From: Candidatus Dojkabacteria bacterium
Lineage (GTDB): Bacteria > Patescibacteriota > Dojkabacteria > B142 > WJKM01
Direction of reading: 5' to 3'
DNA length: 64,000 nt
Assembly (NCBI GenBank): GCA_014729085.1
Contig: WJKM01000008.1
Coordinates: forward strand, 163 to 64,162
The notes beneath the pieces were generated by a model. That model ran no database searches. It saw only the letters and a list, made by a program, of their open reading frames with translations, and was not told where the DNA came from. Both the position numbers and the translations under genes were made by a program. Shown here piece by piece: positions 1,328 through 52,952 of this stretch (positions are counted from its first letter, which is position 1; each line of letters begins with the position of its first letter).

Positions 1328-1788
1328 TTACTTGTACAATTATTTAGTTTATTCATTCTTATAAATTCATGTAGGTCGACTATGTTGATTCGTCCATTTG
1401 AATCAGCATCTTTGGGTCCGCAACCGTTATATTTTGGTATGTCAGAACAAGTTTTCTGATATACTTTAGTGAAATTGGTAAAATCGTCCAGATCTATTTT
1501 TTCGTTTTGATTTTCATCAATTGGGCCACAAAGTACTTTTTTTTCTATAATTTCTCCACTTTGATCTAAAATTTCACCACTTTCAGAGAGTAAGTGTTTA
1601 TTAAAAGTATTGTCTATAGAGGCTAGATTTATATTTTCTGATACTTTGATTACTTCGTCTTCAACCTGCCTATTTTTTTTCATAGTTATACTCATAACTA
1701 TTGCAGGTAAACAAATTACTAAGGTAATCAATAAGCTTAAAGCTGGTTTTTTTAATTTCTGTTTTTGATTTTTCGTGAATTTGAACAT
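1324..1788 (-). CDS. Small membrane-anchored protein made essentially of a dockerin-like double EF-hand module
   Basis: N-terminal TM, then CGPIDENQNEKIDLDDFTNF...CGPKDADSNGRINIVDLHEFI. There is a 4-nt ATGA start/stop overlap with 176..1327, suggesting translational coupling. Confidence 0.5.
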   Translation of the reverse strand: MFKFTKNQKQKLKKPALSLLITLVICLPAIVMSITMKKNRQVEDEVIKVSENINLASIDNTFNKHLLSESGEILDQSGEIIEKKVLCGPIDENQNEKIDLDDFTNFTKVYQKTCSDIPKYNGCGPKDADSNGRINIVDLHEFIRMNKLNNCTSK

Positions 1789-9132: not shown

Positions 9133-9209
9133 GTTTTTAGATTAAAAGACGTAAAGCTATAAATTTTAAATAATGAAGCACATATATATTTTAATTGTTG
9201 TCGGGTAAG

Positions 9210-10514
9210 TTATTCCAGTTTTTTACCGAGTAATTTTCTAAACTTAAGCATGGCTGTATAAGTAGGCAATACAAAAATTGTGTCATTATTATTTGCATTA
9301 TTAAAGGATTTTTCTATACATTTGTTAATATCTTCATCTAGAAAATATTCGGAATATTCATTTAGAGCATATTTAAGCCTTACCTGTAAATCCTTTGCTC
9401 GTGTACCGCCTAAAATCATCCACGTTATATCAGATTTATTTAATAACTCAAATCTAGCATCCCATATCCAAGAAATATCTTTCCCATCAGCTGTGTTGTC
9501 ATTTAAAAGTAAAATCAGTTTTAAATTCTTAACACTTCGAATCAAATCAAGATTAAGACTATAACCCGCAGGGTTCTTGACAAGAAGCATTCTAAAATTT
9601 ACTGTTTTTTCTTTATCCTTTTTAGTAATTAGTTCCCCTCGTCCGAATGCCGGATTAAATTTATTTATTCCTTTCTTTATAATATTATTTTTAATGTCAA
9701 GCAGTTTTGAAACAGTGATTGCAATAAGAACATTATAAACATGAAAATATCCGTATGCATTTAAAGTTTGAGTGTCAAATTTTATTTGTTTGTTATTGAT
9801 TTTGCCTAAAACTTCAAATTCTGAAGTAAGATTAGGTGTAACTTTTAGATTTTTTGCTTTTATATAATTTGGTACTTTGGATTTTTGTTTTGTTCTTTCT
9901 CCCTCGTACGGTAGTTCTTTAGAGAATTGATCTGGTAACGAAACATAATATGTATCATTAGGTAGTTTTTTTGTTAACTGTGAAGTTCGGGGATCGTCAT
10001 AATTTAAAATTATTTTTGCATTCGGACATTGTTCGATACCCTTTCTAATATATTTTTGTGTAATGTCTACTTCTCCATAGGCATCTAATTGATCTCTATA
10101 TAGATTTGTAACGGCAATAATCTTAGGATTTAGAACTTTGGCTATTTTTGGTAAAGTACCCTCCTCTATTTCAAAAACAGCATGTGTGCAATCAATTTTT
10201 CCAGTCAAACTGCATTGTTTTAAGATCTCTGAAAGTATTCCTCTACTTAGATTTGCACCTGCAGAATTTATAATGATATTTATGTCCGCTTCCTTGAAAA
10301 TTGAATTTAAAAGGGTTTGCGTTGTTGTTTTTCCATTTGTCCCAGTAATAATAATAATGTTTGGAATTTGACTTACTAGTTTTTGTAAAGTCCTGGGAAA
10401 ATATTTTTCTATAATTCTACCAGGTAAAGCTGTTCCGGAGCCTTCACCGGTGACTTTAAGAAACCAAGTAAGTATTTTCGAAAAGATTATTATAGGTATT
10501 AGTGTTAAGTACAT
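9210..10514 (-). CDS. murT: Mur-ligase-family lipid II isoglutaminyl synthase subunit MurT
   Basis: Mur ligase P-loop ITGTNGKTTTQTLL, followed by a C-terminal DUF1727-like region. It is paired with gatD. Confidence 0.7.
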   Translation of the reverse strand: MYLTLIPIIIFSKILTWFLKVTGEGSGTALPGRIIEKYFPRTLQKLVSQIPNIIIITGTNGKTTTQTLLNSIFKEADINIIINSAGANLSRGILSEILKQCSLTGKIDCTHAVFEIEEGTLPKIAKVLNPKIIAVTNLYRDQLDAYGEVDITQKYIRKGIEQCPNAKIILNYDDPRTSQLTKKLPNDTYYVSLPDQFSKELPYEGERTKQKSKVPNYIKAKNLKVTPNLTSEFEVLGKINNKQIKFDTQTLNAYGYFHVYNVLIAITVSKLLDIKNNIIKKGINKFNPAFGRGELITKKDKEKTVNFRMLLVKNPAGYSLNLDLIRSVKNLKLILLLNDNTADGKDISWIWDARFELLNKSDITWMILGGTRAKDLQVRLKYALNEYSEYFLDEDINKCIEKSFNNANNNDTIFVLPTYTAMLKFRKLLGKKLE

Positions 10515-11837: not shown

Positions 11838-12656
11838 TTATTTCGTTTTATTTGTTAATGATTTGGTTAAGAAATTACTTAAAGTTTTCATATAGGAGTC
11901 TACCGGATAGTCTTCAGAATCTAATGGGTTTGTTCTTTCTTCTAATTCATCACCATCTTTAAATCCATCTCCGTCGGTATCCGCTAACGTTGGATCAGTA
12001 ATGTATCTGGCCCATGGTACAATATGCCCCCCTGTATGTCCTTCTTCACCATGATTAACCCAAGTTCCTTGTACCATTTTTCTAACCCATTCTACCTCTT
12101 CATTATCATCAATTCTGTCATTATCGCTATCTTTATCTTCTGGATCAGTACCTATTGCAACTTCATATCCATCAGGTAACCCATCTTCGTCAACATCTGG
12201 GTTGTATTCATCGGGATCTTCAGTTCCGATCAGTCCGTCTCTGTCATAATCTTCAGAGCTGGCATTTGGGTTGTTTGGATTAGTTCCTGCACGTAATTCA
12301 TCACCATCACTTACTCCATCCCCGTCACTATCCCATTTCAACGGATCAGTAATATATCTGGCATCTTCAACAAATCTACCGTCTACTGGTGTTCCGTTTA
12401 GTATCTTTTTATCCCAAAGTAATTCATCCCCATCAGTAATTCCATCTCCATCAGTATCAGGGTTTTCAGGATCAGTACCTATTGCAACTTCATATCCATC
12501 ACAAAGTCTGTCGCCATCTGAGTCCCAGTTGTTTGGATCTGGGTCTACCTCATTTAGTAAACCATCTAGATCATGATCAGTCGGCTGATAGGTTGGATCG
12601 TTGGTTGGAATATTTTCTAGTCTCCATTGCCACTGTGGTATTGGTAAATCCTCCAT
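11838..12656 (-). CDS. Thrombospondin type-3-like (TSP3) acidic calcium-binding repeat protein
   Basis: Many DxDxDGxxDxxE repeats ([48 protein letters not shown]). No N-terminal signal peptide in the called ORF. Confidence 0.6.
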
Positions 12657-12802: not shown

Positions 12803-13627
12803 ATGCACATAGACGCAATTAAAAATTTTCTTGAAAAGCTTGGACTTTCACAAGATGAAATTAAGATTTATCTAACATTGCTTATAAAAGGAAATTTATC
12901 AGTTTCTTCCATATCTCAAGAAAATAAAATTGAAAGAACAAAAGTTTATAGAATACTGGATAAGTTAATAAGTAAGGGATTTATCAATAAAATAGCCACT
13001 GAACTTGGAGATCTATTTCAGCCGGCTGGTTTTGAGGCTATTAAGTTAGCCGTATTAGCTAGAGAAAAAGAATTAGAGAGTCTTAAAGCGGAATTTTCAA
13101 ATTTTAAAAAGGATATAGAATTAGCTCAGAAAGCAGAAAAGACAATAGGTACAGATGTTAAATTTTATATGGGGAAGAGGGGAATAAAACAGATGGTTTG
13201 GAATGTAACTAAAGCAAATACTGAAATAAAAAAAATATTAAATAAAACGGCAATTAAATTTCTTGGTAAGAACTTCTGGAATGAGTTTCGAAATGCAAAT
13301 AGAATAAACGGACAATCTGCTCGAGCTCTTTACTCCAAGGAATACCTGGATAGTCTAGGTGAATTAAAAGCTGAATATACAGACGAAATGGTTGCACATT
13401 CAATACACCAAACTTACAAGTTTCTTCCCAAAGAAGTATTTGAAATTCGAAATTATGTTTTTCTATACAATGATAAGGTTGCAATCTTTAATTGGAGTCA
13501 AAACGAAATTTATGGAATAGAGATAAAGAGTAGAGATGTTTCTACCATGCTGAATCAAGTTTATGAGATGCTTTGGAATATTGCAGGCGAGGAACATACA
13601 ATCGATAAGATTTTAAAACAAGTATAG
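12803..13627 (+). CDS. TrmB-family transcriptional regulator (paralog 1 of 3)
   Basis: N-terminal wHTH reads IKIYLTLLIKGNLSVSSISQENKIERTKVYRILDKLISKGFINKI. The conserved C-terminus is VAIFNWS...IYGIEI. Confidence 0.65.
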   Translation: MHIDAIKNFLEKLGLSQDEIKIYLTLLIKGNLSVSSISQENKIERTKVYRILDKLISKGFINKIATELGDLFQPAGFEAIKLAVLAREKELESLKAEFSNFKKDIELAQKAEKTIGTDVKFYMGKRGIKQMVWNVTKANTEIKKILNKTAIKFLGKNFWNEFRNANRINGQSARALYSKEYLDSLGELKAEYTDEMVAHSIHQTYKFLPKEVFEIRNYVFLYNDKVAIFNWSQNEIYGIEIKSRDVSTMLNQVYEMLWNIAGEEHTIDKILKQV

Positions 13628-13661: not shown

Positions 13662-14489
13662 ATGCACCTAGATAAAGTAAGAAGTTTTCTAGAAAAGTTA
13701 GATTTAACTCATGAGGAAATAAAAATTTATTTAGCTTTGATTAAGCATGGGAATCTTTCCGCATCAGATTTGTCCAAGGAAACTAAGGTAGAAAGAACCA
13801 AAGTTTATCGTTTGTTGGATGATTTAATCGGGAGGGGTTTTGTTAATAAAATTGGGACTGAATCAGGTGATGTATTTCAAGCAGAAGGCGAAGAGTCCGT
13901 TAAATTAATTCTTTTAGAAAAAGAAAGAGAGTTAGAAAATTTAAAAAATTCTTTAGATGCAGTACAAGAAAATTACAAACTTCTTAAATCGGGAAGAGAA
14001 ATCAAAACAGATGTTAGATTCTTTATGGGTAAACGTGGTGTAAAACAAATGGTTTGGAATGTTACGAAAGCTAAATCAGAAGTTCGTAAAATGTTAAATA
14101 AAACTGCTTTAAAATATTTTGGACGAAAGTTTTGGAAGGAATATAAAAAGTCGGTAAAAAAGGGAGGACAACAGCATAAAGCATTATATTCAGAAGATTA
14201 TATCGAAAGTTTAAAAGGATTTAAGATCCAAAGTATTAAGCAGCAGGTTGTATCTCCTGAATATCAAACTTATAAATATATTTCAAAAGAATATCTGGAA
14301 ATTAACGATTATATATTAGTTTATGATAATAAAGTTGCTATTTTTAATTGGAGTGATGTTCATATTTATGGGATTGAGATATTAAGCGAAGGATTTGCTG
14401 CAATGCAGAAGCAGATGTTTGATATCTTATGGAATATGGGAAAAGAAGAACATAAGTTGGATAAAGTTCTAGCTAAAATTGAAGATTAA
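13662..14489 (+). CDS. TrmB-family transcriptional regulator (paralog 2 of 3)
   Basis: Clear paralog of 12803..13627 along the whole length (MHLDKVRSFLEKLDLTHEEIKIYLALIKHGNLSASDLSKETKVERTKVYRLLDDL). Confidence 0.65.
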   Translation: MHLDKVRSFLEKLDLTHEEIKIYLALIKHGNLSASDLSKETKVERTKVYRLLDDLIGRGFVNKIGTESGDVFQAEGEESVKLILLEKERELENLKNSLDAVQENYKLLKSGREIKTDVRFFMGKRGVKQMVWNVTKAKSEVRKMLNKTALKYFGRKFWKEYKKSVKKGGQQHKALYSEDYIESLKGFKIQSIKQQVVSPEYQTYKYISKEYLEINDYILVYDNKVAIFNWSDVHIYGIEILSEGFAAMQKQMFDILWNMGKEEHKLDKVLAKIED

Positions 14490-14543: not shown

Positions 14544-15083
14544 TTAAAAGCTGTTTGGATCAAGAGGATTTGTTTCATTATTTTTTTCTTCCTTGTCAGA
14601 TTTTCCGTCTCCGTCTGTATCATAGAGAGTTGGATCAGTATATACGTTAAAAATAGGACTTTGATATCTAACTTCGTCTCCATCAGTAATTCCATCTCCA
14701 TCTGTATCTGGATTTGAAGGATCGGTTGGTGAGAAATGTTTCCATATTCTTTCTCCAGCAGAATCGCGCCAACCTAGGTCTATAATACCGAAGTATTCGT
14801 CTTGATTATGTAAACCATCAGCGTCAGGGTCGTCTAGTAAGCCATAGTCAAGATTCCCAAAGTATTTAAGTTCCCATGAATCTTTAAGTCCATCGCCATC
14901 ACTATCAACATTGGCTCTGAAGTTTTCCACTGTGGCAGTCAAATCGGGGGTTGGTAATGGAGTTTCTGTTGGATCTTCAGTAGCTAGGGGAGTTTCAGTA
15001 GTAGCTCCAGTTGTACATCCTGCTATTAATAGTAATGATGCAAGTAAAGCGCTCCCCCATACTAATTTATTTTCCTGTTCCAT
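14544..15083 (-). CDS. Lipoprotein with TSP3-like calcium-binding repeats
   Basis: [26 protein letters not shown] has lipobox IAGC. Acidic repeats [24 protein letters not shown] and [12 protein letters not shown] follow. Confidence 0.6.
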
Positions 15084-15288: not shown

Positions 15289-16122
15289 ATGCATATAAAC
15301 ATTATTACTAGATTTCTAGAAAATTTAGATTTATCTAAGGAAGAAATCGAGGTATATGTTACCTTGCTTGATAATCCAGATATTTCTATTTCAGATTTAT
15401 CCCATGAACTAAGTATTAATAGATCAAAAGTATATAGAACACTGGATAGCCTTATTAATAAAGGATATGTGAATAAAGTATCATCGGAAAGTAAGGATTT
15501 ATTTAAAGCCAGAGGTTTTGAGTGTATAAAGCAGGCAGTATATGAAAAAGAAAAAGAGGTCGAAGCAATGAAAGAAGAATTAAACAAGATTGAACAGAAT
15601 TTTCAGTTGTTCGGATCAGGGGCAGATTTAAATATAGATGTAAAATTTTACCAGGGAAAACGGGGTATAAAACAGATGTATTGGAATGTCGCTAAATCCA
15701 AAACTGAAGTAAAAAAAATTTTGAATAAATCAGCTATTGGTTTTTTAGGAAGGCAGTATTGGGAAGATATGGTAAAGGAGCAAAAGTTAAATCAAACACA
15801 AATAAGGGTATTGTATTCCGAGAGTTTTTATAATTCAATAAAAAAAATAGATAAACAAAATTTCCGAAATTACTTTGCTCCTCCTAGCTTACAGACATAT
15901 AAATTTCTTCCAGAAGAAGTATTCAAGATAGAGAATTACTTCATATTATATGAAAATAGGACTACCGTGTTTAATTGGCATGAGAGAAGCATTTATGGGA
16001 TAGAAATTTTAAATCCGGAAGTTGCATCAATGTTATCGCAGATGTTCGACATCTTATGGAATATGGGAGGTAAGGAACATACAATTGAAGATTTGGAAAA
16101 AAGAATACTTCAAGAAAATTAG
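15289..16122 (+). CDS. TrmB-family transcriptional regulator (paralog 3 of 3)
   Basis: Paralog of the two upstream TrmB-like genes (EIEVYVTLLDNPDISISDLSHELSINRSKVYRTLDSLINKGYV). Confidence 0.65.
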   Translation: MHINIITRFLENLDLSKEEIEVYVTLLDNPDISISDLSHELSINRSKVYRTLDSLINKGYVNKVSSESKDLFKARGFECIKQAVYEKEKEVEAMKEELNKIEQNFQLFGSGADLNIDVKFYQGKRGIKQMYWNVAKSKTEVKKILNKSAIGFLGRQYWEDMVKEQKLNQTQIRVLYSESFYNSIKKIDKQNFRNYFAPPSLQTYKFLPEEVFKIENYFILYENRTTVFNWHERSIYGIEILNPEVASMLSQMFDILWNMGGKEHTIEDLEKRILQEN

Positions 16123-25368: not shown

Positions 25369-26232
25369 ATGTCAATAAAACAAGCTGTAATTAGCGATGC
25401 AGGTATTTCCAGTAGATTTCTACCAATTGTAAAAACTATTCCCAAATCTTTTCTTCCAATAGGTAATAAACCAATTATTCATTATTTGGTTGAAGAATGC
25501 GCGGAAGCCGGAGTGGAAAAAGTTATCATTGTTGCACGAGAAGAAACAAAAACTTTTTTTGATGATTACTTTCATAATAGCTGTGATGAGTTGGAAGAAC
25601 TATTAAAGAATATGAATAAACTTAATCGATTTAAAAGTGTTAAAAATGTATTCGATTTACCTAAGGTACAGGTGATAACTCAGGACTTAGACTTACCTTA
25701 TGGAACTGCAGCTCCTGTAATCTCTGCAAGGTCATATCTAACAGAAGAAGAGCCGTTTCTTTTTTTACATGCTGATGATTTAGTAATTGCTGATAACAAA
25801 GACTGTAAAGTTTTAGTAGATGAGTATGAAGAAAATTCTGATTATGCGGGTTATATGATTACTGAAGAAATTAGTTTAGAAAGGGTGCATCTATATGGGA
25901 TGGTAAAAACAAAGGGGCAAAACAAAGATCAATTAGATAGAATTGTGGAAAAACCAACCCAGAAAGACACTCCTTCACTTTTAGCATCTTATGGCAGATT
26001 TTTATATAAATACAAAATCTTCGAATATTTGGACATAGATAGACTTGGTAAAGATAATGAATTATGGAATGTTGATGCTTTGACTGCAATGGCACAAGAG
26101 TATCCAGTTAAAGTAGTTAAAAATAAGGGTACTTGGGTAACGACAGGAGATCCTTTGAATTATTTTAAAGCCCAGATTCTTTTTAGTAGAACGAAAAAGA
26201 AGTATTCTGAAATACTAGATAAGCCAAGCTAA
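25369..26232 (+). CDS. Sugar-phosphate nucleotidyltransferase (UTP-glucose-1-phosphate uridylyltransferase-like)
   Basis: N-terminal AVISDAGISSRFLPIVKTIPKSFLPIGNKPIIHY, the GxGxR/K nucleotidyltransferase signature. Confidence 0.65.
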   Translation: MSIKQAVISDAGISSRFLPIVKTIPKSFLPIGNKPIIHYLVEECAEAGVEKVIIVAREETKTFFDDYFHNSCDELEELLKNMNKLNRFKSVKNVFDLPKVQVITQDLDLPYGTAAPVISARSYLTEEEPFLFLHADDLVIADNKDCKVLVDEYEENSDYAGYMITEEISLERVHLYGMVKTKGQNKDQLDRIVEKPTQKDTPSLLASYGRFLYKYKIFEYLDIDRLGKDNELWNVDALTAMAQEYPVKVVKNKGTWVTTGDPLNYFKAQILFSRTKKKYSEILDKPS

Positions 26233-26243
26233 TATGGACTCTA

Positions 26244-27653
26244 ATGGCTAAATTGTTTTCTAAGAAAAAGACAAGTCTAATTTTAACTATGTTTTTAGTT
26301 ATTTTTTCAGTATTGATTGTGTTTGTTCTAAGCAGAAGAAACAAGGAGTTAAATACTAGGACAAACGCCTCAAATCAACTATCAAATTATATTATTCCAA
26401 AGAAAGTATATGTGTTGATATATAATCCAACTTTACAGCTGGAAGGTAATCCTACTCTTGTAGAATTTAAAAATTGGAATAATCCTAATGAACTAGTCCA
26501 ACAACTTGAGAATTGGTTTTTGGTCACTTCCGAAGAAAGAGTTCGTTATAACATAGTCTCTATCGAAGAAATTGATGCTATCCCTATCAAAGAAGATGGA
26601 TTTGAATATACTCAAGCTTCCTATTTAGAATGTTTAGAGGACGAAACTGAGTGTCACAAACCGGACATAGCAGATTATTCGGAAATTTTTAATAATAATT
26701 CTATATGTGAAAAATTTAATAACGGTGAGTTTGATGAATTATGGATGATTGCAGGTCCGTGGTTTGGATTTTATGAATCTAGACTAACTGGTCCAAATGC
26801 ATTTTATTATAATTCCCCTCCATTAAGAGGCACAAGTTGTAATAAACTTTTACCAATTATGGGTTTTAATTATGAAAGAGGTCTTGAGAATATGGTTCAT
26901 GATTATGGACACAGATTAGAGGATACGATGAAAAAAGTATATGGTTCATGGGATAGAAATTCATCAGCACATAATTGGAACAAGTTTGCATTAGTTGACT
27001 CCCAAGCTAATAGTTTTGATTTTAGTGGATGCGGTTTCTGTCATTTTCCACCTAATGCTATTGATGATTATGCTTATTCAGACACGAGAAACGTAAGATC
27101 TTATTGTAATCAATTTTACAATTATCCCAATTTGGACAACTTGAGTGATAATACAGATACTATTTCCTGCGATGTTTGGGGTTGTAATGAACTTGGATAT
27201 TTTAGATGGTTGTTTAGGCATATGCCGAAATATCAAGGCTATGGTCCAGATAAAAAATTAAATGATTGGTGGATGTATCTTATTGATCCCAATATTGTTC
27301 TTACAAACATAGTCCCAGATTATTGCCCAACTATTACTCCTACTCCTACTCCTACTAAAACTGCAACTAGTAGTCCCGTGATTACTGGTACCTCTACAGA
27401 AGACTCGACGCCTACAGAAGATCCGGAAACAACTATTACATATATTCCTACTTCAACTGAAATGGTTACAGAATCACCTATTGATAAAAAATCTGATTTT
27501 AACAAAGATGGAAAGGTTAATATAGTTGATTTTAGAATATTTATCGAATGCTATAAAGCTGAAACTTCGGAATGTGATTTAAATCGGGATACAAAAGTTG
27601 ATCTATATGATTTTGTTGAATTTCGCATGGATTATCTTCAAGAAAATAGTTAA
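26244..27653 (+). CDS. Membrane-anchored secreted protein with Thr/Pro linker and canonical C-terminal dockerin
   Basis: TM anchor and an unknown ~320-aa domain, then linker TITPTPTPTKTATSSPVITGTSTEDSTPTEDPETT. The dockerin reads DFNKDGKVNIVDFRIF...DLNRDTKVDLYDFVEF, a textbook DxNxDGxVNxxD pair. Confidence 0.55.
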   Translation: MAKLFSKKKTSLILTMFLVIFSVLIVFVLSRRNKELNTRTNASNQLSNYIIPKKVYVLIYNPTLQLEGNPTLVEFKNWNNPNELVQQLENWFLVTSEERVRYNIVSIEEIDAIPIKEDGFEYTQASYLECLEDETECHKPDIADYSEIFNNNSICEKFNNGEFDELWMIAGPWFGFYESRLTGPNAFYYNSPPLRGTSCNKLLPIMGFNYERGLENMVHDYGHRLEDTMKKVYGSWDRNSSAHNWNKFALVDSQANSFDFSGCGFCHFPPNAIDDYAYSDTRNVRSYCNQFYNYPNLDNLSDNTDTISCDVWGCNELGYFRWLFRHMPKYQGYGPDKKLNDWWMYLIDPNIVLTNIVPDYCPTITPTPTPTKTATSSPVITGTSTEDSTPTEDPETTITYIPTSTEMVTESPIDKKSDFNKDGKVNIVDFRIFIECYKAETSECDLNRDTKVDLYDFVEFRMDYLQENS

Positions 27654-39921: not shown

Positions 39922-40896
39922 ATGAAATTTAAATTCACAAATATTGGTGAAGATAGAAAAAGTAAACAGAAGTTAATTGTTGTTCTACTTTTATGTTTTC
40001 TTTTTTTAGTAATTGCCAATTCTATAGTTTTTGTTAGCAACTACTCAAAATATACAAGAACTGAAAAAACAGAAGCTTCCGATATAGAAAGTAAGTATTG
40101 GAATCATGATTTGTTTGATGGGCGATTGGAAGCGGTAAGCTGTGAACGTATAGTTGGATGGATAGGAACTAAAGATGATTTGATGGCACAGATGCCAGTT
40201 TTTTTTACTATAGGAGGTCCTTATGAGGGAAATGGAGTTGTGTTTAATCCCAATACAATAGCAGATATAAAACGAGAGAAAGCTGTATGTGATTTTTTGG
40301 ATGGTACTCTTAGTATGGCTGAAGAATGTGTTACCTGCGAAGGTACATCTTGTAATCATGGGTTCGAAATCAATCTTCCCAATTATACCGACTCTCCAAT
40401 TTTTAATAATAGCTCTAATAATAAGGTTTACGCTTATGGTGTTTATAAAGGACAAATTGCAGCTATTATGGATGGTCCTAGTTTTTCAAAATTTTTTCTT
40501 GAAATTCCGGAAAATTGTGGCGATGGATGGGATGGAAATTCAGATGAAATACCTACTTATACTGAAACTCCTACACCAGGCCCGGTTGAAATTCCCGAGG
40601 GCGTTAATTTTGATTTTAATTTAGATACTTTGATTGATCTGAATGATTTTACTTTATTTGCAAATGGTTATAGGGAGTGTAACAAACCGGATAATCCTGA
40701 CTCACAAAATTCTCCCGAATGCGAAATGTATAAAAGTACAGATGCTACTTTTGATTTCGATTTTAATGATGATCAAAAAGTTGATTTGAATGATTTCGTC
40801 ATTTTCGCACAAGTATATAAAGTTTGTAATAAACCAGGAGATACAGCAGCTCAAGACTCGACAGATTGTAATCAATATAAGGGAGGAGATAACTGA
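39922..40896 (+). CDS. Membrane-anchored secreted protein with C-terminal dockerin-like double EF-hand module (family member 1)
   Basis: TM, then the NYSKYTRTEKTEAS motif and an unknown ~190-aa domain. The dockerin-like part is DFNLDTLIDLNDFTLFANGY...DFNDDQKVDLNDFVIFAQVYKVC. Confidence 0.55.
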   Translation: MKFKFTNIGEDRKSKQKLIVVLLLCFLFLVIANSIVFVSNYSKYTRTEKTEASDIESKYWNHDLFDGRLEAVSCERIVGWIGTKDDLMAQMPVFFTIGGPYEGNGVVFNPNTIADIKREKAVCDFLDGTLSMAEECVTCEGTSCNHGFEINLPNYTDSPIFNNSSNNKVYAYGVYKGQIAAIMDGPSFSKFFLEIPENCGDGWDGNSDEIPTYTETPTPGPVEIPEGVNFDFNLDTLIDLNDFTLFANGYRECNKPDNPDSQNSPECEMYKSTDATFDFDFNDDQKVDLNDFVIFAQVYKVCNKPGDTAAQDSTDCNQYKGGDN

Positions 40897-41174: not shown

Positions 41175-42566
41175 ATGAAGAAACTAAAATTCAAAAAAAT
41201 AGATGATAAGCAGACATATAGGAAACTTCTGCTGACAATATTTTTATTTGTCTTGGTAATTGTATTTTCAGTTTCAATTTATTTTGTACATAACTATTCA
41301 AAGTATAGTGAAATTAAAAAGAGTGAGGCAGCTGGCAATAATTGCTGTAATGAACCGGATTATAAAGTATGCGATGAAGACCATGAATGGGATGAAGGAT
41401 ATTATGCTTGTTTAAACGAAGAATGTGAGAAATGCGGTGGGGCTTCATGGGGTTCATGTAATGAAAATTGCAAGTGTGATCCTGGTGAGGATCATGTTAA
41501 GTGTCCTTCTGATTGTACAGATGAAGGTGTGGATGTACTAAAGCAAATAAATTTTGATTTTAATCTTGACGAAATTTTGGACTTATCTGATTTCACCCTA
41601 TTTGCTGAGGGATATAAGATTTGTAATTCAACGACAACAGAAAGTCCGCAAACAACCGAAGAATGTAAAGATTATAAAGAAGCAGACAGATCTTATGATT
41701 TTGATTTTAATGAAGATACTTGGCTTGACTTAAAAGATTTTGTTCATTTTGTTGAAGCATATAAAGTATGCAATTCAACGACACAAGACAATTCTCAAGA
41801 TAGTATCGAATGCAAGAAACTTAAGGGATTAGGACCTGAACCTACATGCGAAATTAGTCCAACATCTACTGCAGAACCCACTAGTGACCCAACAGATGAT
41901 CCTAGTCCAACAGCAGAACCAACAAATCCTCCTGATTTTGAGGATCCTGAAGGTAGTACTTCAATTGGTGGCGATTTTGAAGGTGAGTTCTATCATGATG
42001 GAGCTCCTGAATTGTATATTGCTAAGGACTGGAAAACCTGGTATGAAGATGGCTGTACAGCCGGGAAGTGTGGTACTTTTAATTGTGATGGGAGTCCAGC
42101 TTATTGCAGACGTCCTGAATTTAAAAAAGCGGATGGTACAAGGTTTAGAAATAGGGTAAGAACTGGACAGTATTCTCAGCAATGGTTTAATACTTTCGGT
42201 ACACATAATGCAGGTATTTATAGAAAAGTAAATGTTGGAACCGATAAACAGCTTAAAATGCAAGCATATGGATCGCAATGGACAGATGATGGTAGTGGTG
42301 GGTCAACCATTATGAATGGTAGAATTGGTATAGATCCAACTGGAGGCACGGATCCTAATAGTGATTCAGTTATATGGACAGACTGGACTCCCCTACCAAA
42401 TGTCAAACCCGAAGACAGTGGTGAATGGAAGAAGCTTGAAATAGAGGCTACGAGCGAAGTTGATGAAGTGACAATTTTCATTATGTCGAATAATCAGTAT
42501 CCCCTTACAAATAATGATGTCTATTGGGATGATGTTATATTATATATTGATGGTGAAAAAATCTAA
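41175..42566 (+). CDS. Membrane-anchored secreted Cys-rich protein with internal dockerin-like module and C-terminal CBM-like beta-sandwich domain (family member 2)
   Basis: TM and NYSKYSEIKKSEAA, then a Cys-rich EGF-like stretch. The dockerin-like part is DFNLDEILDLSDF...DFNEDTWLDLKDF. A PT linker follows, and the C-terminus ends ...NNDVYWDDVILYIDGEKI. Confidence 0.55.
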   Translation: MKKLKFKKIDDKQTYRKLLLTIFLFVLVIVFSVSIYFVHNYSKYSEIKKSEAAGNNCCNEPDYKVCDEDHEWDEGYYACLNEECEKCGGASWGSCNENCKCDPGEDHVKCPSDCTDEGVDVLKQINFDFNLDEILDLSDFTLFAEGYKICNSTTTESPQTTEECKDYKEADRSYDFDFNEDTWLDLKDFVHFVEAYKVCNSTTQDNSQDSIECKKLKGLGPEPTCEISPTSTAEPTSDPTDDPSPTAEPTNPPDFEDPEGSTSIGGDFEGEFYHDGAPELYIAKDWKTWYEDGCTAGKCGTFNCDGSPAYCRRPEFKKADGTRFRNRVRTGQYSQQWFNTFGTHNAGIYRKVNVGTDKQLKMQAYGSQWTDDGSGGSTIMNGRIGIDPTGGTDPNSDSVIWTDWTPLPNVKPEDSGEWKKLEIEATSEVDEVTIFIMSNNQYPLTNNDVYWDDVILYIDGEKI

Positions 42567-42581
42567 ATTATTTATTGATTA

Positions 42582-43289
42582 ATGAAGAAGTTATATCAAA
42601 AGAATCAGGTCAAAAAAATTTTGGTCATAATTCTATTTTCAATTCTCCTTATTACCTTATTTCTTTCTGCTTTATTTGTTCAAAATTATTCTAGATATAG
42701 TGAGGTTAAGGAATCTGAGGCCTCTTCCTCAAAACCGAATATAGATTTCAATACAGATAAGAATATAGACTTAAATGATTTCAGAAATTTTGTAGAGGTT
42801 TATAGAATATGTAATAGTTCTGACACAGATAATCCACAGAATAGCTCTCAATGTATCTCACAAAAAGCTGATTATGATTTAGATGATAATGGGAAAGTTG
42901 ATATTCAGGATTTTGTTGTATTTGCAGATGGATACAAGATTTGTAATAAGCCTGGAGATTCGAATGCACAGGATTCTAATGAATGTAAGGCATATAAAGG
43001 AAGTGAGGACGATATAACCATTGAACCTTCCCCTACTAGTACAGAAGACTTAGATGGAGAATGCACTTGCCATGTAACAGGTAAAGGTTGTGGGAAGAAG
43101 GGTTTATTTAAAGGTTGCGAAGATTTTGATGAAACTGAGTCAAGATGTGTGAAAGAGAACGAATGTACCGAATCCAATTGTTGTACTGAGGCAGAAAAGG
43201 TTGCTGAACAAGAAGCCGAAAATAGAGGAGCTGTTCTAGAAAGTTTTGAATGTAATGCAGAGGTGCAGTGGACAGAAGGGGGCTGTTGA
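42582..43289 (+). CDS. Membrane-anchored secreted protein with dockerin-like module and Cys-rich C-terminus (family member 3)
   Basis: TM and NYSRYSEVKESEAS. The dockerin-like part is DFNTDKNIDLNDFRNF...DYDLDDNGKVDIQDFVVF. The C-terminal 100 aa contain about 14 Cys. Confidence 0.5.
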   Translation: MKKLYQKNQVKKILVIILFSILLITLFLSALFVQNYSRYSEVKESEASSSKPNIDFNTDKNIDLNDFRNFVEVYRICNSSDTDNPQNSSQCISQKADYDLDDNGKVDIQDFVVFADGYKICNKPGDSNAQDSNECKAYKGSEDDITIEPSPTSTEDLDGECTCHVTGKGCGKKGLFKGCEDFDETESRCVKENECTESNCCTEAEKVAEQEAENRGAVLESFECNAEVQWTEGGC

Positions 43290-45039: not shown

Positions 45040-46320
45040 TTGCGGAAAGAATTATTTAGGAATTTTCGCATATATTTAATATTTTATTTCAAAATTATGG
45101 AACAACTTCCAGTCTTTGATTTCTACAACGATCAAGCTATAGATACTCCAGATTTTCCCTCAAGTTTAATAGAAGCAGATATAGATGGAGATGGTGACTT
45201 AGACATCTTGGCATTAAATGCGCAGAGAGTAGACAGTGTAGATGGTGATTATTTTAATCACTATATTTTACTTAACGAAGAAGGCAAATTCCAATTCGAA
45301 AACCCTCTCATGTTTCAATCTGGTGAGAGACTTGGGGATGCAGCCTTTGGAGATTTAGATAACGACGGTGATTTAGATATTTACACAACATCCTATTGGA
45401 GAGGTGAAGATAGTGTATATCTAAACACAGGTAATCAGTTTAATATTTTAAATCAGAATGAGACTTATGAACATGAAGATGGTTTAGTTGAGCTTGTAGA
45501 TATAGATGATGATGGAGATTTGGATGCAATTGTGACAACGCAGTCTCATAATTACCAAGATCCACCTCAAAACCCAACCCAAGTAAGGTTGAATGATGGT
45601 AGTGGCCAGTTTGCAAATTCTGTAACCCTTGGTAGGAGCTCAAGGACTGTTGATACTGCAATTGCAGATGTGGACGGTGATGGTGATCAAGATTATTTTC
45701 AAAGATCATATGAGAGAGGTTTGGAATTTTTTGAAAATCAGGGGGATGGCAGTTTTGCTGAGGGTGAAGCTATAAATATAGGGACCACAATCTACTCTTT
45801 TGATTTAGGAGATATTGATGGAGATGGTAAGGATGATTTAGTTGTATTGCATCAAGATAAGCCTGAAGAAGTACTAGAGATGGGAGCTTTATCATGGTTG
45901 GAACGGAATGGAGATAGTTGGCAAATTGAAGGTGATCATTTTTGGAATGGATTAATTCCTTATAATCAGGATATAGAACTTGGAGATGTAGATGGAGATG
46001 GGGATTTTGATGTTTTAATTGGTGGTGGAGCAGAAAAAAGTTATTTTCCGGAAGTTCATTATGATGTTCAACCTGCGAGGGTGGTGCATAATGCCGGTTT
46101 ATCTCCCTTTGAAAATGTAGTGGAGAAAGAGTTAAAGAGAAATAATATAGAAACTCCAATAATTGATCCATATGATTTGAGTTTAGTTCTAGCTGATATT
46201 GATGGAGACGGTAAAGATGAACCGATTATATCTAGTTTTTTTAATGAAGGGCAGGATATAACAATATGGGATAATGATCCATTATTATTTTTACCGGTAG
46301 TAGTTAGAAATTTTAGCTAA
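45040..46320 (+). CDS. FG-GAP / VCBS-type repeat (beta-propeller) protein
   Basis: Repeated DIDGDGDLDI, DLDNDGDLDI, DIDDDGDLDA, DVDGDGDQD and DIDGDGKDD calcium-binding propeller repeats. The start is ambiguous: Met20 at 45097 is an alternative, and there is no obvious signal peptide. Confidence 0.55.
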   Translation: MRKELFRNFRIYLIFYFKIMEQLPVFDFYNDQAIDTPDFPSSLIEADIDGDGDLDILALNAQRVDSVDGDYFNHYILLNEEGKFQFENPLMFQSGERLGDAAFGDLDNDGDLDIYTTSYWRGEDSVYLNTGNQFNILNQNETYEHEDGLVELVDIDDDGDLDAIVTTQSHNYQDPPQNPTQVRLNDGSGQFANSVTLGRSSRTVDTAIADVDGDGDQDYFQRSYERGLEFFENQGDGSFAEGEAINIGTTIYSFDLGDIDGDGKDDLVVLHQDKPEEVLEMGALSWLERNGDSWQIEGDHFWNGLIPYNQDIELGDVDGDGDFDVLIGGGAEKSYFPEVHYDVQPARVVHNAGLSPFENVVEKELKRNNIETPIIDPYDLSLVLADIDGDGKDEPIISSFFNEGQDITIWDNDPLLFLPVVVRNFS

Positions 46321-46384: not shown

Positions 46385-48178
46385 TTAACCACAATTCTTC
46401 TGTTTATATAAAATAATAAAATTTTTAAAGTCAATAATATCAACTTTTCCGTTTCTATCACTGTCTTTTGGTCCACAACCTTCCACAATAGGTGAGTCCG
46501 AACAGGTTTTACTGTAAACATCTTTAAAAGGCTCAAAGTCATAGAGATCGACTTTATTATTATTGTTATGGTCAAGTTGACCGCAAATTACTCCTATTGG
46601 TGTACTAACCGCTGAAGATGTTACAGTAACAGTTGGAGTTGGTGTTTTAACTGTCGAAGATGTTACAGTAACAGTTGCTGTTGGAGTATTAGTTACTGAT
46701 GGACTTGTGGTAGTAGTTAAGGTAGGGCTATGTGAAGGTTCACTTGTTTGTGTTGGTGAATTAAGTACTTTACCTATTGTTATAAGATTTCCCGTCGGTT
46801 TTGGAGAAGACCAGTGTGTATAATTTCCTTCTATAAATGTTCCAATTATATCAGTAGTGAAATTTCCAATAAAATTTAATTGGCCAACTGTTAGATTGGA
46901 ACTTGTATATATTTCAGTTTCCGAAATATTGGAATTACTAATTGAGTATTTAGTTATTGTCTGGTATTGATTATTTCGTCCGTATATCTGTTTAATTCCG
47001 TCTTCTATAATTATTTCATAAGGCTGGAAAAGACCTAGATGATGGTAATTATCGATTTCCCATTTACTACCATCCCAGCTAGCTATTTCTAAGTATGGTG
47101 TATAAGGCATATTGCCAACTGTATTTATTTGTTTGAACCTTGTGAATGCAATGACTGGCTTGTTATTATAAATATCAACAGCCATTCTGGTATTCCCGCC
47201 TTCTTTTCCAAATTCCAGTTTGTTTTCATAACCAAATATTTCACAGTGCTGTTCAAATTCACTTCTGGTTATAGTACTTCCAAGGTTATGCTTTGAGGCT
47301 GAATATATATTATTATCTTCGAAGTTGAAGAATATATAATAGTGCTTATTAAAATAGTCGTTGTGATTTTGATGGATTCCAAAAGTAATATGAAGTCCTT
47401 CGGGATCGCTTTCGTAATGTATGGCTTTTGTATAAACTGTATTCCAAACATCTTCACTTTTCCCAGGGTCAATCAATTTATGAGATGTCCAGGTTTCACC
47501 ATTATCAGTTGATTTTAAATAATACTCTGGTTCATACCAATTTGAAAGCGGAGGATTAATAACACCATTCCCTTTGGTTTTTCGAAATAAATAGTATAAA
47601 TCTCCGTTTTTTGCTTTATATGCAGCTCCATATGTAGCTTCATTTGTACCGTTTATTTCATTGATTTCCCAGTTCGTAATATCAGTTGTGGAAGAGCTTG
47701 TTGCTTGAATAACCTTATGATTTGCATGCATGGAATATAAAACATGTAGTCGTCCCATACTATCCTTTAAGATCTGAGGATAATTATGTGAGTCTGGTTG
47801 AACTGGGGAGTCTAGAATTTTATGTGGCTCTGACCAATTCTCTAGATTATGATCATAATACATAATATAAGGCGAACAAGATGATAGCCCTTCTTTTTGA
47901 TCATTTGAAAAAACCACAAATGTTCGATTTGAGTCTGTATCATAAATTCCAGAATATATTTGTGTTTTTTGTCTGGCATAAGTTTCAACTATATTTTCGG
48001 CTATTATCTGTGTTTCGTATTGATCAGACGAAATTTGAGCACCGGATTTTTTAATATTCAGTTCAGATTGTTTTTCGATTTTAAAGGAAATAAGTAGAGA
48101 TGTCCCAATTAAGAATACAACTATGAAAGATAACAGAATAACGAAATGAAATTTTTTAGATGTTTCAGCTTTATGCAT
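46385..48178 (-). CDS. Membrane-anchored BNR/Asp-box (sialidase/glycoside-hydrolase-like beta-propeller) protein with Thr/Pro linker and C-terminal dockerin-like module
   Basis: TM anchor and the Asp-box YLKSTDNGETW (SxDxGxTW). The linker is TSPSVTNTPTATVTVTSSTVKTPTPTVTVTSS. The C-terminus reads CGQLDHNNNNKVDLYDFEPF...CGPKDSDRNGKVDIIDFKNFIILYKQKNC. Confidence 0.6.
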   Translation of the reverse strand: MHKAETSKKFHFVILLSFIVVFLIGTSLLISFKIEKQSELNIKKSGAQISSDQYETQIIAENIVETYARQKTQIYSGIYDTDSNRTFVVFSNDQKEGLSSCSPYIMYYDHNLENWSEPHKILDSPVQPDSHNYPQILKDSMGRLHVLYSMHANHKVIQATSSSTTDITNWEINEINGTNEATYGAAYKAKNGDLYYLFRKTKGNGVINPPLSNWYEPEYYLKSTDNGETWTSHKLIDPGKSEDVWNTVYTKAIHYESDPEGLHITFGIHQNHNDYFNKHYYIFFNFEDNNIYSASKHNLGSTITRSEFEQHCEIFGYENKLEFGKEGGNTRMAVDIYNNKPVIAFTRFKQINTVGNMPYTPYLEIASWDGSKWEIDNYHHLGLFQPYEIIIEDGIKQIYGRNNQYQTITKYSISNSNISETEIYTSSNLTVGQLNFIGNFTTDIIGTFIEGNYTHWSSPKPTGNLITIGKVLNSPTQTSEPSHSPTLTTTTSPSVTNTPTATVTVTSSTVKTPTPTVTVTSSAVSTPIGVICGQLDHNNNNKVDLYDFEPFKDVYSKTCSDSPIVEGCGPKDSDRNGKVDIIDFKNFIILYKQKNCG

Positions 48179-48188
48179 TTAGTCACAT

Positions 48189-49235
48189 TTATCTATTGGC
48201 AAGTGAATATTTAGTTGCTCTCCCCTTCCCTTCTACTTTTATTAGCTTTTTTTTCAAAAGTTCATTTAGATCTCTATAAGCTGTCATTGTCGATACATCA
48301 AACATTTGAACATAATCCTGCCTTTTAACCGATGGTATAGTTTGCAGATACTTGAGGATTTTGAGTTGTCTTTTATTCAAATTTAAAAAGGGTTGATGTG
48401 TTCTTTTCTTGTTAGTTTCAATTTGCTTAGTAATTCTTTTATACCGATTTTCAAATTCAGCAGCTATATGTTCTGTAAATTTTTCGATCCAAAAGGTAAT
48501 ATTTCCAGTTGGAGAGTTTGATGACTTTTCCCATTGTTCCTTGAATTCGTCTTGATTTAAATCAAAAAGTTTTGGAACAGATAAATAAGTAATAGTTGAA
48601 TATTCATTTTTTTGTAAAAGAAAGTCACATATTGCAATAATTGTTAGTTTGTTCAAATTTGAAAAAGGAATTATCCTGATAAGTCTGTATATAGTTACAG
48701 CAGTTCTAATTATTGGATTAATTCTATCTGTATTGTTTTTGTACCATTCGAACGTGTTGTCCAGTTCGGCTTCTATTTCATTAGTTTTTATTGATTGATC
48801 CCCATAAGTTAACCAGTCATCAAATGAAGAGTCGATATCGGTTCCGACACGGAATTTTGCCTCCCAAGGTTCCTTCCAGGAATAAATTAATAATTTATTT
48901 AGATGAAGAACTAGATCTTTGTTTATATTTACATAATTATCGTAACGATTTGATCTAATGTATTCGATAGCATTCTTAAAATTATTTAAAATCTTATTTT
49001 TCAAGTCATTTTGAGTGTCTATCTTTCCAACTAAAAACTTTTCCGTATCTTTAAGTGTTATATTTAAACCAAGCATATGTGCTGTATGGAAAATATCGAT
49101 TTTCTTTTGTTTTTTATTTAATTGGGTTTGTATCTCGTCACTTAAATCTAATTGGGATATTTTACATTTAGTAGTCTCGAGATCTATTAAATTATTTACA
49201 ATTGTATTGGTCAATTGATAGTTAATTTGCCTCAT
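48189..49235 (-). CDS. Fic-like protein with degenerate Fic motif and C-terminal winged-helix DNA-binding domain
   Basis: The C-terminus KRQLKILKYLQTIPSVKRQDYVQMFDVSTMTAYRDLNELLKKKLIKVEGKGRATKYSL is the typical Fic C-terminal wHTH. In place of HPFxxGNGR the protein has IIPFSNLNKLTIIAI. Confidence 0.4.
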   Translation of the reverse strand: MRQINYQLTNTIVNNLIDLETTKCKISQLDLSDEIQTQLNKKQKKIDIFHTAHMLGLNITLKDTEKFLVGKIDTQNDLKNKILNNFKNAIEYIRSNRYDNYVNINKDLVLHLNKLLIYSWKEPWEAKFRVGTDIDSSFDDWLTYGDQSIKTNEIEAELDNTFEWYKNNTDRINPIIRTAVTIYRLIRIIPFSNLNKLTIIAICDFLLQKNEYSTITYLSVPKLFDLNQDEFKEQWEKSSNSPTGNITFWIEKFTEHIAAEFENRYKRITKQIETNKKRTHQPFLNLNKRQLKILKYLQTIPSVKRQDYVQMFDVSTMTAYRDLNELLKKKLIKVEGKGRATKYSLANR

Positions 49236-49372: not shown

Positions 49373-49831
49373 TTATGAAGAAGATTGAAAACCTGTAGTT
49401 TCTGGAGATCGATTCACAACTAACCAATATAGACCTACTTTTTTTACAACCTCAGAAAACTTGTCAAAATCTACCGGTTTTTGGATAAAACTGTTTGCAC
49501 CAAGTTCATACCCTTTTTCTATATCTGCTTGAAGATTAGAGGAAGTGAGTATGATAACAGGTATATTTTTTGTTTTAGGATTGTCTTTTATTAGCTTTAG
49601 AACCTCTAAACCATGTAGTTTGGGAAGTTTGAGATCAAGAAGAATTAATTTGGGATTTTCGTTTTTATTTCTATCTGAATATTGATTTTTACAAAATAAA
49701 AAGTCTAGCGCTTCTTCGCCATCACTAACTAAATGAATATTATTAGATATATGGTTGTTTCGGAGAGATAATAGTATTAATTCTGCATCATTTGGATCGT
49801 CTTCGATTAATAAAATTTCAACTGTGTTCAT
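49373..49831 (-). CDS. Single-domain response regulator (CheY/Rcp1-like REC only)
   Basis: ILLIEDDPNDAELI, the phospho-acceptor LILLDLKLPKLHGLEVLK, and T/K residues in ILTSS...QKP. Confidence 0.8.
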   Translation of the reverse strand: MNTVEILLIEDDPNDAELILLSLRNNHISNNIHLVSDGEEALDFLFCKNQYSDRNKNENPKLILLDLKLPKLHGLEVLKLIKDNPKTKNIPVIILTSSNLQADIEKGYELGANSFIQKPVDFDKFSEVVKKVGLYWLVVNRSPETTGFQSSS

Positions 49832-49902
49832 ATTGAATTCTTAAGATGTAGGCTATATTAAACATTGCATATTAAACAGAATGATCTGTGTGTCAACTTG
49901 AT

Positions 49903-50328
49903 TTATTTTTGCACAAGAGACCAATATAAACCTGCTTGTTTTACTGCTTCTGAGAACTGGGTAAAATCAAGAGGTTTTTGAATATAGCTATTTGCTCCTA
50001 GTTTATATCCATCAATCATATCTTTATCAAGTTCGGATGAAGTAAAAATCGCGACCGGAATATTTTTAGTATTATCATTTTCTCTGATATTTTTGAGGAC
50101 TTCTAAACCGTTAATTTTGGGAAGTTTAAGATCTAGCAGAATCAGTTGTGGTTTGTTCTCGTCAGTCCTATTTGAATATTTTCCTTGGCAATGCAGGAAA
50201 TCCAAGGCTTCCTGACCGTCAGTAACCAGATGAATTTTATTTAGAATATTATTTCGGCGCAGGGTTAGAAGAGCAAGTTCAGCATCATTTGCATCATCTT
50301 CAACTAATAATATTTCAATATTTTCCAT
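49903..50328 (-). CDS. Single-domain response regulator (REC only), paralog
   Basis: ILLVEDDANDAELA...LILLDLKLPKINGLEVLK...IFTSS...QKP. It is a paralog of 49373..49831. Confidence 0.8.
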   Translation of the reverse strand: MENIEILLVEDDANDAELALLTLRRNNILNKIHLVTDGQEALDFLHCQGKYSNRTDENKPQLILLDLKLPKINGLEVLKNIRENDNTKNIPVAIFTSSELDKDMIDGYKLGANSYIQKPLDFTQFSEAVKQAGLYWSLVQK

Positions 50329-50342
50329 GACTACAATTAAAA

Positions 50343-52880: not shown

Positions 52881-52952
52881 AGCTGGCTATGAGATTTGAA
52901 CTCATAACCTTTCCCTTACGAAGGGAATGCTCTACCATTGAGCTAAGCCAGC
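52881..52952 (-). tRNA. tRNA-Thr (anticodon CGU)
   Basis: Minus strand: GCTGGCT-TA-GCTC-AATGGTA-GAGC-A-TTCCC-TTCGTAA-GGGAA-AGGTT-ATGAG-TTCAAAT-CTCAT-AGCCAGC-T. All four stems pair perfectly. The T-loop is TTCAAAT and the anticodon loop has CGT at positions 34-36. No CCA is encoded. Confidence 0.8.

Follow-up and report, generated by a model that had tools for sequence, protein, structure and literature searches.

The subject of this article is a 64,000-nucleotide stretch of DNA (below, the window), which covers nearly all of a 64,577-nt contig from a metagenome-assembled genome (MAG) of Candidatus Dojkabacteria. Eight open reading frames (ORFs) in these 64 kb encode proteins with a paired module, each half of which consists of a calcium-binding loop and a helix. 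The modules are homologous to one another, their number is far above chance, and their loops are of the dockerin type. They fall into three sequence subtypes (A, B and C), all with cysteine pairs. The gene on which we concentrate, 26244..27653 on the plus strand (the focal gene), encodes a putative exported hydrolase of 469 aa with a C-terminal dockerin, which is genuine even if it is marginal. With about even confidence, we propose that exported enzymes of this bacterium are tagged with dockerins and dock onto cohesin-type partners that would be encoded elsewhere.

The number of modules was established in two ways. A regular expression for the loop, applied to the six-frame translation of the window, found 16 loops, always in pairs and all within eight ORFs; in 200 composition-preserving shuffles the mean number was 0.47 and the maximum 3. 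Asp occupies positions 1 and 12 in all 16 loops, and Asp or Asn occupies positions 3, 5 and 9 (16/16 each). Three hidden Markov models (HMMs) were also used: one of subtype B relatives, one of the focal module together with the dockerins of four focal-enzyme homologues, three of which are Pfam-positive, and one of subtype C. With each of these models, the matches at E < 0.01 are exactly these eight ORFs; the match that follows has E >= 0.19. An earlier note on this DNA had stressed the high density of such proteins, and this is borne out; its figure of at least nine has to be lowered to eight, which is also the number of proteins that it actually lists. It is conceivable that a genome of about 31% GC, a composition that enriches codons for Asn, Asp, Ile and Lys, would produce Asp/Asn-rich motifs by chance, or that the ORFs are non-coding. 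Against this stand the constant pairing of the loops, their location on long ORFs with recognised domains, and the existence of 297 representatives of the family elsewhere. These representatives, the shuffles and the agreement of the three HMMs refute the idea, and we assign it practically no probability.

The density is largely explained by two tandem arrays, 176/1324/1819 on the minus strand and 39922/41175/42582 on the plus strand, each with a single module subtype. Subtype A is the focal module. Subtype B has four cysteines in the pattern C-G-x-x-[loop]-helix-C-x(8-11)-C-G-x-x-[loop]-helix-C. Its members in the window are all on the minus strand: 179..373, C-terminal in the EEP-family protein 176..1327 (Exo_endo_phos E 1.5e-14; module HMM E 4e-24); 1825..2019, C-terminal in a second EEP-family protein, 1819..3057 (seen with Pfam, the loops and the module HMM); 46391..46591, C-terminal in 46385..48178, a BNR_4 protein with a sialidase-like beta-propeller (BNR_4 E 8.7e-14; HMM E 1e-27); and 1333..1536, in the 154-aa protein 1324..1788, which consists of a hydrophobic helix, a short spacer and the module. 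The two EEP proteins are paralogues with 33% identity over 413 aa (E 7e-63).

Subtype C, the DFDFN type, is found in three proteins on the plus strand and has a Cys-x(10-13)-Cys insert after each helix. It is C-terminal (40603..40893) in 39922..40896, where loops, module HMM and hhalign all detect it and where the insert after each loop-helix is Cys-x12/13-Cys. In 41175..42566 the module is internal (41547..41831; loops and module HMM) and is followed by a Pro/Thr/Ser-rich linker and a C-terminal domain (aa ~270-463). Of the 40 homologues of this domain, most have LysM (PF01476) fused to it and many have SdrD_B (PF17210) in addition; such company suggests a peptidoglycan- or cell-wall-associated function. 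A homologue search with this protein matched its C-terminal domain only and found no relatives of its subtype C module. In 42582..43289 the module (42732..43010; loops and module HMM) lies just past the N-terminal helix and a Cys-rich tail comes after it. The three subtype C proteins have their N-terminal helices in common as well as their modules.

The carriers are thus two EEP nuclease/phosphatase-like proteins, a BNR beta-propeller, the hydrolase-like focal protein of uncharacterised family, a protein with a LysM-associated type of C-terminus, and three proteins with no recognised domain. One N-terminal hydrophobic helix is present in 8/8. The Thr/Pro-rich linkers that the earlier note saw on several of them are real: in 176, 1819, 26244, 41175 and 46385, 18-22 of 30 residues are Pro, Thr or Ser. 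A small motif of Ala plus a small residue (SEA|S, TEA|S, SEA|A, TNA|S, DKA|S, SGA|Q) is seen about 10-20 aa past the N-terminal helix in all eight proteins. It might be a signal-peptidase site, although an unusually distant one from the hydrophobic core. It would depend on cleavage there if the proteins are set free or remain tethered to the membrane.

The focal protein is identical to a deposited hypothetical protein of Candidatus Dojkabacteria, GF362_02240 (P0001). It begins with a hydrophobic helix at about aa 11-30 (26274..26333; hydropathy 3.0 over 19 residues), which AlphaFold models as a helix of aa 8-38 and which could be either a signal anchor or a signal peptide. A conserved domain of catalytic type follows at aa 50-360 (26391..27323; about 310 aa), belongs to an uncharacterised family and is modelled with a predicted local distance difference test (pLDDT) score of 95-98. 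A Thr/Pro/Ser-rich linker, aa 361-415 (27324..27488; 22/30 residues Pro, Thr or Ser; pLDDT <50), leads to the dockerin module, aa 416-467 (27489..27644). As had been claimed, there are two dockerin loops, DFNKDGKVNIVD at aa 418-429 and DLNRDTKVDLYD at aa 445-456. A helix comes after each in the AlphaFold model (aa 427-438 and 455-467), and a Cys-x7-Cys pair lies between helix 1 and loop 2. Pfam Dockerin_1 (PF00404) matches aa 417-457 with 24.0 bits, the gathering score being 22.9. The best true matches among sequences in the Protein Data Bank (PDB) are dockerins as well, weak though they are: 2y3n_B (E 0.009), then 4fl4_A, 2jnk_A, 2mte_A and 1daq_A. The designation "textbook type I" that this module had been given is not confirmed. 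A dockerin it is; its marginal score, the distance of only 27 residues from the start of one loop to the start of the next, the Cys pair in the linker and the low pLDDT of the region (40-76) do not belong to a textbook case.

How far can the other seven modules be considered dockerins? Subtype A is the only one above the Pfam dockerin cut-off; in Pfam, subtypes B and C have weak EF-hand or sub-threshold dockerin matches. They are linked to the dockerins by profile comparison, where hhalign gives 98.2% for A-B, 98.0% for B-C and 96.1% for A-C, the last figure being for subtype C against a profile that includes Pfam-positive dockerins. BLASTP connects A with C and B with C at about 1e-4 to 1e-5. 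For subtype B there is also structure prediction. With 114 relatives in the alignment, the module of 1324..1788 is modelled by AlphaFold at pLDDT 92-97, and the model has two helices only, one after each loop, with no entering helix. When it is compared with the PDB by Foldseek, ranks 1-14 are all dockerin entries and the first EF-hand protein comes at rank 15; the best match is 2y3n_B (probability 0.92; target-normalised TM score 0.62). In this predicted structure, subtype B is thus closer to solved dockerins than to any other solved fold. Consequently the earlier listing of the Cys-bracketed and DFN-type variants as dockerins is upheld by profile comparison and by the fold model of B, with the reservation that each of them is below the Pfam threshold.

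Several results weigh against this assignment. Seven of the eight modules are below the Pfam dockerin cut-off of 22.9 (best scores 10.9 and 10.6 bits, or no match at all), and seven of eight are also under the cut-off of the NCBIfam model dockerin_GC. The dockerin region of the focal protein itself is poorly modelled, with the pLDDT values given above. Two of the three subtype C copies are not C-terminal, and the fold models are of subtypes A and B. The profiles of subtypes B and C match EF-hand proteins first in the PDB.

The last of these results introduces an alternative, namely that the modules are ordinary EF-hand calcium sensors or buffers that merely resemble dockerins. EF-hand pairs (Pfam clan EF_hand; 1c7v) do share the paired DxDxDG-type 12-residue loop plus helix and a weak sequence similarity. 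Several window proteins have weak Pfam EF-hand matches, all of them scoring below their cut-offs, and one relative is named "EF-hand domain-containing protein" in UniRef. Position 12 of the loop is typically Asp in dockerins and Glu in EF-hands. In the wider subtype B family this residue is Asp in 298 of 312 loops (96%) and Glu in 3 of 312; none of the 16 window loops has Glu. The absence of a helix ahead of either loop in a confident model, the dockerins that fill the first ranks among structural neighbours, and the putative disulfide cysteines are all foreign to EF-hand pairs. So is the extracellular placement on enzymes, after Thr/Pro linkers. Furthermore, Dockerin_1 matches more relatives than any EF-hand model does. 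We therefore regard the EF-hand alternative as quite improbable.

Another family for comparison is NCBIfam NF041540, a curated C-terminal dockerin-like anchoring domain (GC-type dockerin; cut-off 29 bits). The focal protein (24.3 bits), 176 (19.3) and 1819 (19.5) align over most of its length, and 10 of 114 subtype B relatives match it at E <= 0.001. NF041540 is related to the modules described here but is not the same family.

These modules are not confined to the window. An exhaustive HMMER search with the subtype B profile found 297 cluster representatives at E <= 0.001, 72 of them at E <= 1e-10. The best 150 of the 297 representatives were analysed in detail; they contain 163 modules, of which 137 are C-terminal and 150 have exactly four cysteines, with spacings of 27 / 9-12 / 27-31. 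Pfam was used for a census of 114 of these proteins. Dockerin_1 matches 29 of these (E <= 0.001; best 1.3e-11) and EF-hand_1 matches 17. The companion domains are of kinds usual in secreted enzymes, namely Beta_helix, BNR, Exo_endo_phos, Endonuclease_NS, Trypsin, GDSL lipases, GH39, Glyco_hydro_cc, Polysacc_lyase and Kazal, so that subtype B is carried by nucleases, lipases, proteases, glycosidases and lyases. Few members have an organism name; those that do are from Dojkabacteria (P0133, P0138) and a Saccharibacteria MAG (P0175). The dockerin fold on exported proteins with such varied domains makes a docking or anchoring role a reasonable suggestion.

One observation on the genomic surroundings of subtype B can be mentioned here. 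At four of eight independent related loci, genes with Sigma-70 r2/r4_2 domains, resembling extracytoplasmic function (ECF) sigma factors, are situated no more than a few kb from genes for subtype B dockerins (L005, 11641..14082; L007, 6507..7004; L009, 171..755; L010, 7422..7931). Cellulosome genes of Clostridium thermocellum are under the control of SigI/RsgI. The proximity of the sigma genes may be a coincidence.

If dockerins are plugs, a socket would be expected. The earlier note saw no cohesin in the window, and neither do we, be it by Pfam, by a local cohesin HMM or by hhalign, in searches that covered, of this genome, the window alone. These results have to be counted against our proposal, together with those on the assignment of the modules. 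Pfam recognised no cohesin among the window ORFs with a hydrophobic start, plainly integral-membrane or transport proteins being left aside: the scan omitted the FtsW-like 27669 and the ABC-transporter-like 29398 (both so named by eye) and included 59885 and a fragment of an SLH-domain protein. A local HMM built from Pfam-confirmed cohesins of proteins that carry a subtype B module, one of them from a Saccharibacteria MAG, found nothing in the six frames of the window, and hhalign comparison of the unassigned exported window ORFs with cohesin gave probabilities of <= 0.2%. Three lipoprotein-like window ORFs, 10617, 31904 and 59885, have no match to any family. The SLH-domain protein, at 63325..64000 on the minus strand (Pfam SLH E 8.7e-10), is represented by its C-terminal part, with the N-terminus beyond the window. 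It is possibly a cell-wall anchoring protein, and it was considered as an anchoring scaffoldin, since the earlier note asked if it continues into cohesin repeats. The part within the window has no Pfam cohesin, and the contig extends at most 577 bases past the window. Elsewhere, no cohesin is found within 10 kb at four further related loci. A search for related loci with the cohesin alignment gave only one locus among genome contigs, and a search of metagenome contigs gave only one weak locus.

Relatives of the module present a different picture. Three of the 114 subtype B relatives also carry a Pfam cohesin: P0171 has two of them, followed by a Ser-rich linker and the subtype B module; in P0175 a cohesin is accompanied by DUF4215 repeats and the module; and P0145 combines a cohesin with the module. 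On the Saccharibacteria contig, directly upstream of P0175, there is a gene for a DUF4832 protein with a C-terminal dockerin. At one further locus (L006; GCA_041738875.1, JBGSOW010000044.1), P0124, with three subtype B modules, is adjoined on the opposite strand by a 316-aa ORF (9165..10115, minus strand) that is hydrophobic at both ends. This ORF is cohesin-like at aa 64-189 (local HMM E 3e-6; hhalign 52% over 125 columns) and, by its sequence, is a candidate for a minimal membrane-anchored cohesin. Pfam does not recognise it as a cohesin, which must be set on the negative side.

We can now state the proposal more fully. The modules would bind Ca2+ and act as plugs; the cohesin-type receptors on which they would dock would either be encoded in another part of the genome or belong to a partner cell. 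In this way scavenging enzymes would be kept at the cell surface. Disulfides between the cysteines would staple the small module outside the cell. Since helices 1 and 3 of a dockerin are antiparallel, C1 should be near C4 and C2 near C3, and so disulfides C1-C4 and C2-C3 are predicted for the four-Cys module. In subtype B they might be a covalent version of the "intramolecular clasp" known in dockerins (PMC3821032).

A serious alternative is that the dockerin fold works here without any cohesin, as a Ca-dependent stabilising or anchoring device that binds a wall polymer, an S-layer or SLH protein, a host glycan, or other modules of its kind. The genome would then have no cohesin. To our knowledge, every dockerin with a known partner binds cohesin, and the dockerin fold is not known to bind carbohydrates or cell walls; the cohesins fused or adjacent to the subtype B module in relatives also speak against the alternative. 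In its favour, there is no cohesin in the window or at the four further loci. The N-terminal hydrophobic helix could already anchor the proteins, so that a second anchor is not obviously needed, and the window also encodes TSP3 and FG-GAP extracellular Ca-repeat proteins and an SLH protein. According to published reports, it is common for a genome to have dockerins and lack cohesins (bioRxiv 10.1101/680553; Peer et al. 2009, as cited in PMC4300822 and PMC9012536). For dockerins outside cellulosomes, proposed roles are those of adhesins (PMC10066038) and, in Saccharibacteria, of host-glycan-targeting domains (PMC10633639). We consider this cohesin-independent role possible rather than probable. 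The earlier note had left the choice between an undescribed assembly system and a direct Ca-dependent anchor. For the former there are the cohesin fusions and neighbours, in relatives only; the word "undescribed" goes too far, as orphan dockerins are documented.

The enzyme to which the focal dockerin is attached provides some further hints. Its N-terminal domain has no Pfam match in a direct scan and no precomputed Pfam family among its 187 homologues. Depending on the lineage, these homologues carry dockerin, SLH, PG_binding_1, CarboxypepD_reg, Big_7, CBM_4_9, DNRLRE or LRR modules, with Pfam dockerins on P0016, P0022 and P0094. The accessory modules of the family are interchangeable, and several of them are wall- or carbohydrate-binding. 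As the dockerin is swapped with modules of known wall- or surface-targeting function, there is indirect support for a targeting role of the focal dockerin. One homologue, P0022 (596 aa), consists of a cohesin-like region, a Pfam dockerin (28.6 bits) and the catalytic domain, in this order. The cohesin match is weak (Pfam E 0.009, under the cut-off), and the dockerin is on the N-terminal side. A protein that bears both plug and socket suggests self-assembly into chains.

Conservation in the focal domain was counted over 36 sequences. It includes [H/E]219-x3-H223 (35/36), R224 (36/36), any residue, and E226 (34/36), and also H267 (34/36), D164 (35/36) and E165 (36/36). Judging by these residues, the domain is possibly a metal-dependent hydrolase, which we regard as a reasonable guess. 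For the focal N-terminal domain alone, zincin/metzincin metalloproteases (ADAM17, ADAMTS, CpaA, atrolysin) were considered for comparison; these are recognised by the zincin fold and by a zinc-binding helix with HExxH (or HxxEH).

We know other systems with which these modules can be compared. With the type I/II dockerins of cellulosomes (PF00404; 2y3n_B, 2ccl_B, 2b59_B) they share the duplicated 12-residue Ca loop plus helix with Asp at position 12, a length of about 60-70 residues, a mostly C-terminal position after Thr/Pro linkers on secreted enzymes, and the closest predicted fold. The carriers differ: EEP and BNR_4 proteins and a putative hydrolase of an uncharacterised family take the place of plant-cell-wall carbohydrate-active enzymes (CAZymes), and none of the window module proteins matches a glycoside hydrolase (GH) or carbohydrate-binding module (CBM) family. 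The modules differ as well, subtype A in its short loop spacing and Cys pair, subtype B in its four conserved and regularly spaced cysteines, and subtype C in having two Cys-bounded inserts of 10-13 residues and in tolerating an internal or N-terminal position. No scaffoldin with cohesins is found within the 64-kb window.

Another parallel is provided by the non-cellulosomal dockerin and cohesin proteins of non-cellulolytic bacteria and archaea. They too have varied non-CAZyme extracellular carriers, occur in symbiotic or consortial organisms, often with cohesins missing or unmatched in number, and have been proposed to act in adhesion or surface display. Such proteins, and genomes enriched in one class only, are documented (PMC4300822, PMC9012536, bioRxiv 10.1101/680553; Peer et al. 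2009, as cited in the first two), and enrichment in one of the two classes has been described as common (bioRxiv 10.1101/680553). Examples are anaerobic methanotrophic (ANME) archaea (PMC9012536), the giant ORFs of Omnitrophota, whose dockerins are the proposed adhesins mentioned above (PMC10066038), and a cultivated Saccharibacterium with an essential dockerin-domain envelope protein, SEML1_0315 (PMC10633639). Unlike these cases, the window has defined cysteine-bearing subtypes and eight genes within 64 kb of a very small genome. In the searchable literature on "GC-type dockerin" or conserved dockerin cysteines we found no description of such variants. Hence dockerins without local cohesins are already known; it is for the cysteine-bearing subtypes, their breadth and their concentration in Dojkabacteria that we have found no description.

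The remaining features of the window are given here for completeness. The focal gene is preceded by a gene for a GalU-like UTP-glucose-1-phosphate uridylyltransferase (25369..26232, plus strand; TIGR01099 E 9e-51, below the equivalog cut-off). As the stop codon of this gene is 12 nt ahead of the focal start, the two may be co-transcribed. The FtsW-like gene also adjoins the focal gene, and the neighbourhood is envelope-related. Two minus-strand genes encode proteins with bacterial TSP3 (TSP3_bac) Ca-repeats, 11838..12656 (E 3e-25) and the lipoprotein-like 14544..15083 (E 3e-13). An FG-GAP/FG-GAP_3 protein with seven repeats is encoded on the plus strand at 45040..46320 (E 1e-32; TTG start, no clear signal sequence), between the subtype C array and the BNR/subtype B gene. 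Considered as candidates for a ninth dockerin, these three turned out, by Pfam and the module HMMs, to have other Ca-binding repeats. Together, module, TSP3 and FG-GAP proteins make 11 extracytoplasmic Ca-repeat proteins in the window. Three paralogues of about 275 aa on the plus strand (12803..13627, 13662..14489, 15289..16122) have near-identical N-termini (MH[IL]D..[KR].FLEKL.L...EIKIYL.L) and look, by eye, like TrmB-type helix-turn-helix (HTH) regulators. On the minus strand, there is a Fic/DOC protein with a DeoR-type HTH (48189..49235; Fic 23.8 bits, cut-off 24) and, beside it, two single-domain response-regulator-like ORFs and a large membrane protein (49373..52811, by eye). ARAGORN and Rfam, the latter at gathering thresholds, detect a single RNA gene, that of tRNA-Thr (CGT), 52881..52952, minus strand.

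What would these plugs mean for the organism? The Candidate Phyla Radiation (CPR), or Patescibacteria, have tiny genomes and do not make many of their building blocks. Those few that have been brought into culture are mostly Saccharibacteria, and they live on other cells, to which they are attached (PMC10633639). A plug module common to many exported enzymes would provide a handle by which the surface proteome of CPR bacteria could be defined from sequence, and by which the receptor, be it a cohesin or something else, could be sought; adhesion and surface display would become open to direct tests. The four-Cys subtype is mostly missed at the thresholds of Pfam and NCBIfam, and as a result its carriers are annotated as "hypothetical" or "EF-hand" proteins. 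Small disulfide-stabilised dockerins might also be of use as engineering parts. If no partner exists, the modules will add to the long-standing puzzle of orphan dockerins. A broader speculation, which we think rather unlikely at present, is that CPR bacteria, at least Dojkabacteria and Saccharibacteria, have their own lineages of disulfide-stapled dockerins together with small membrane-anchored or adaptor cohesins. Jointly they would make up a display system of non-cellulosomal type, by which a large share of the exported hydrolases (nucleases, lipases, proteases and glycosidases) would be tethered to the surface of the episymbiont or to its interface with the host. If correct, this would be a "scavengosome" analogous to the cellulosome.

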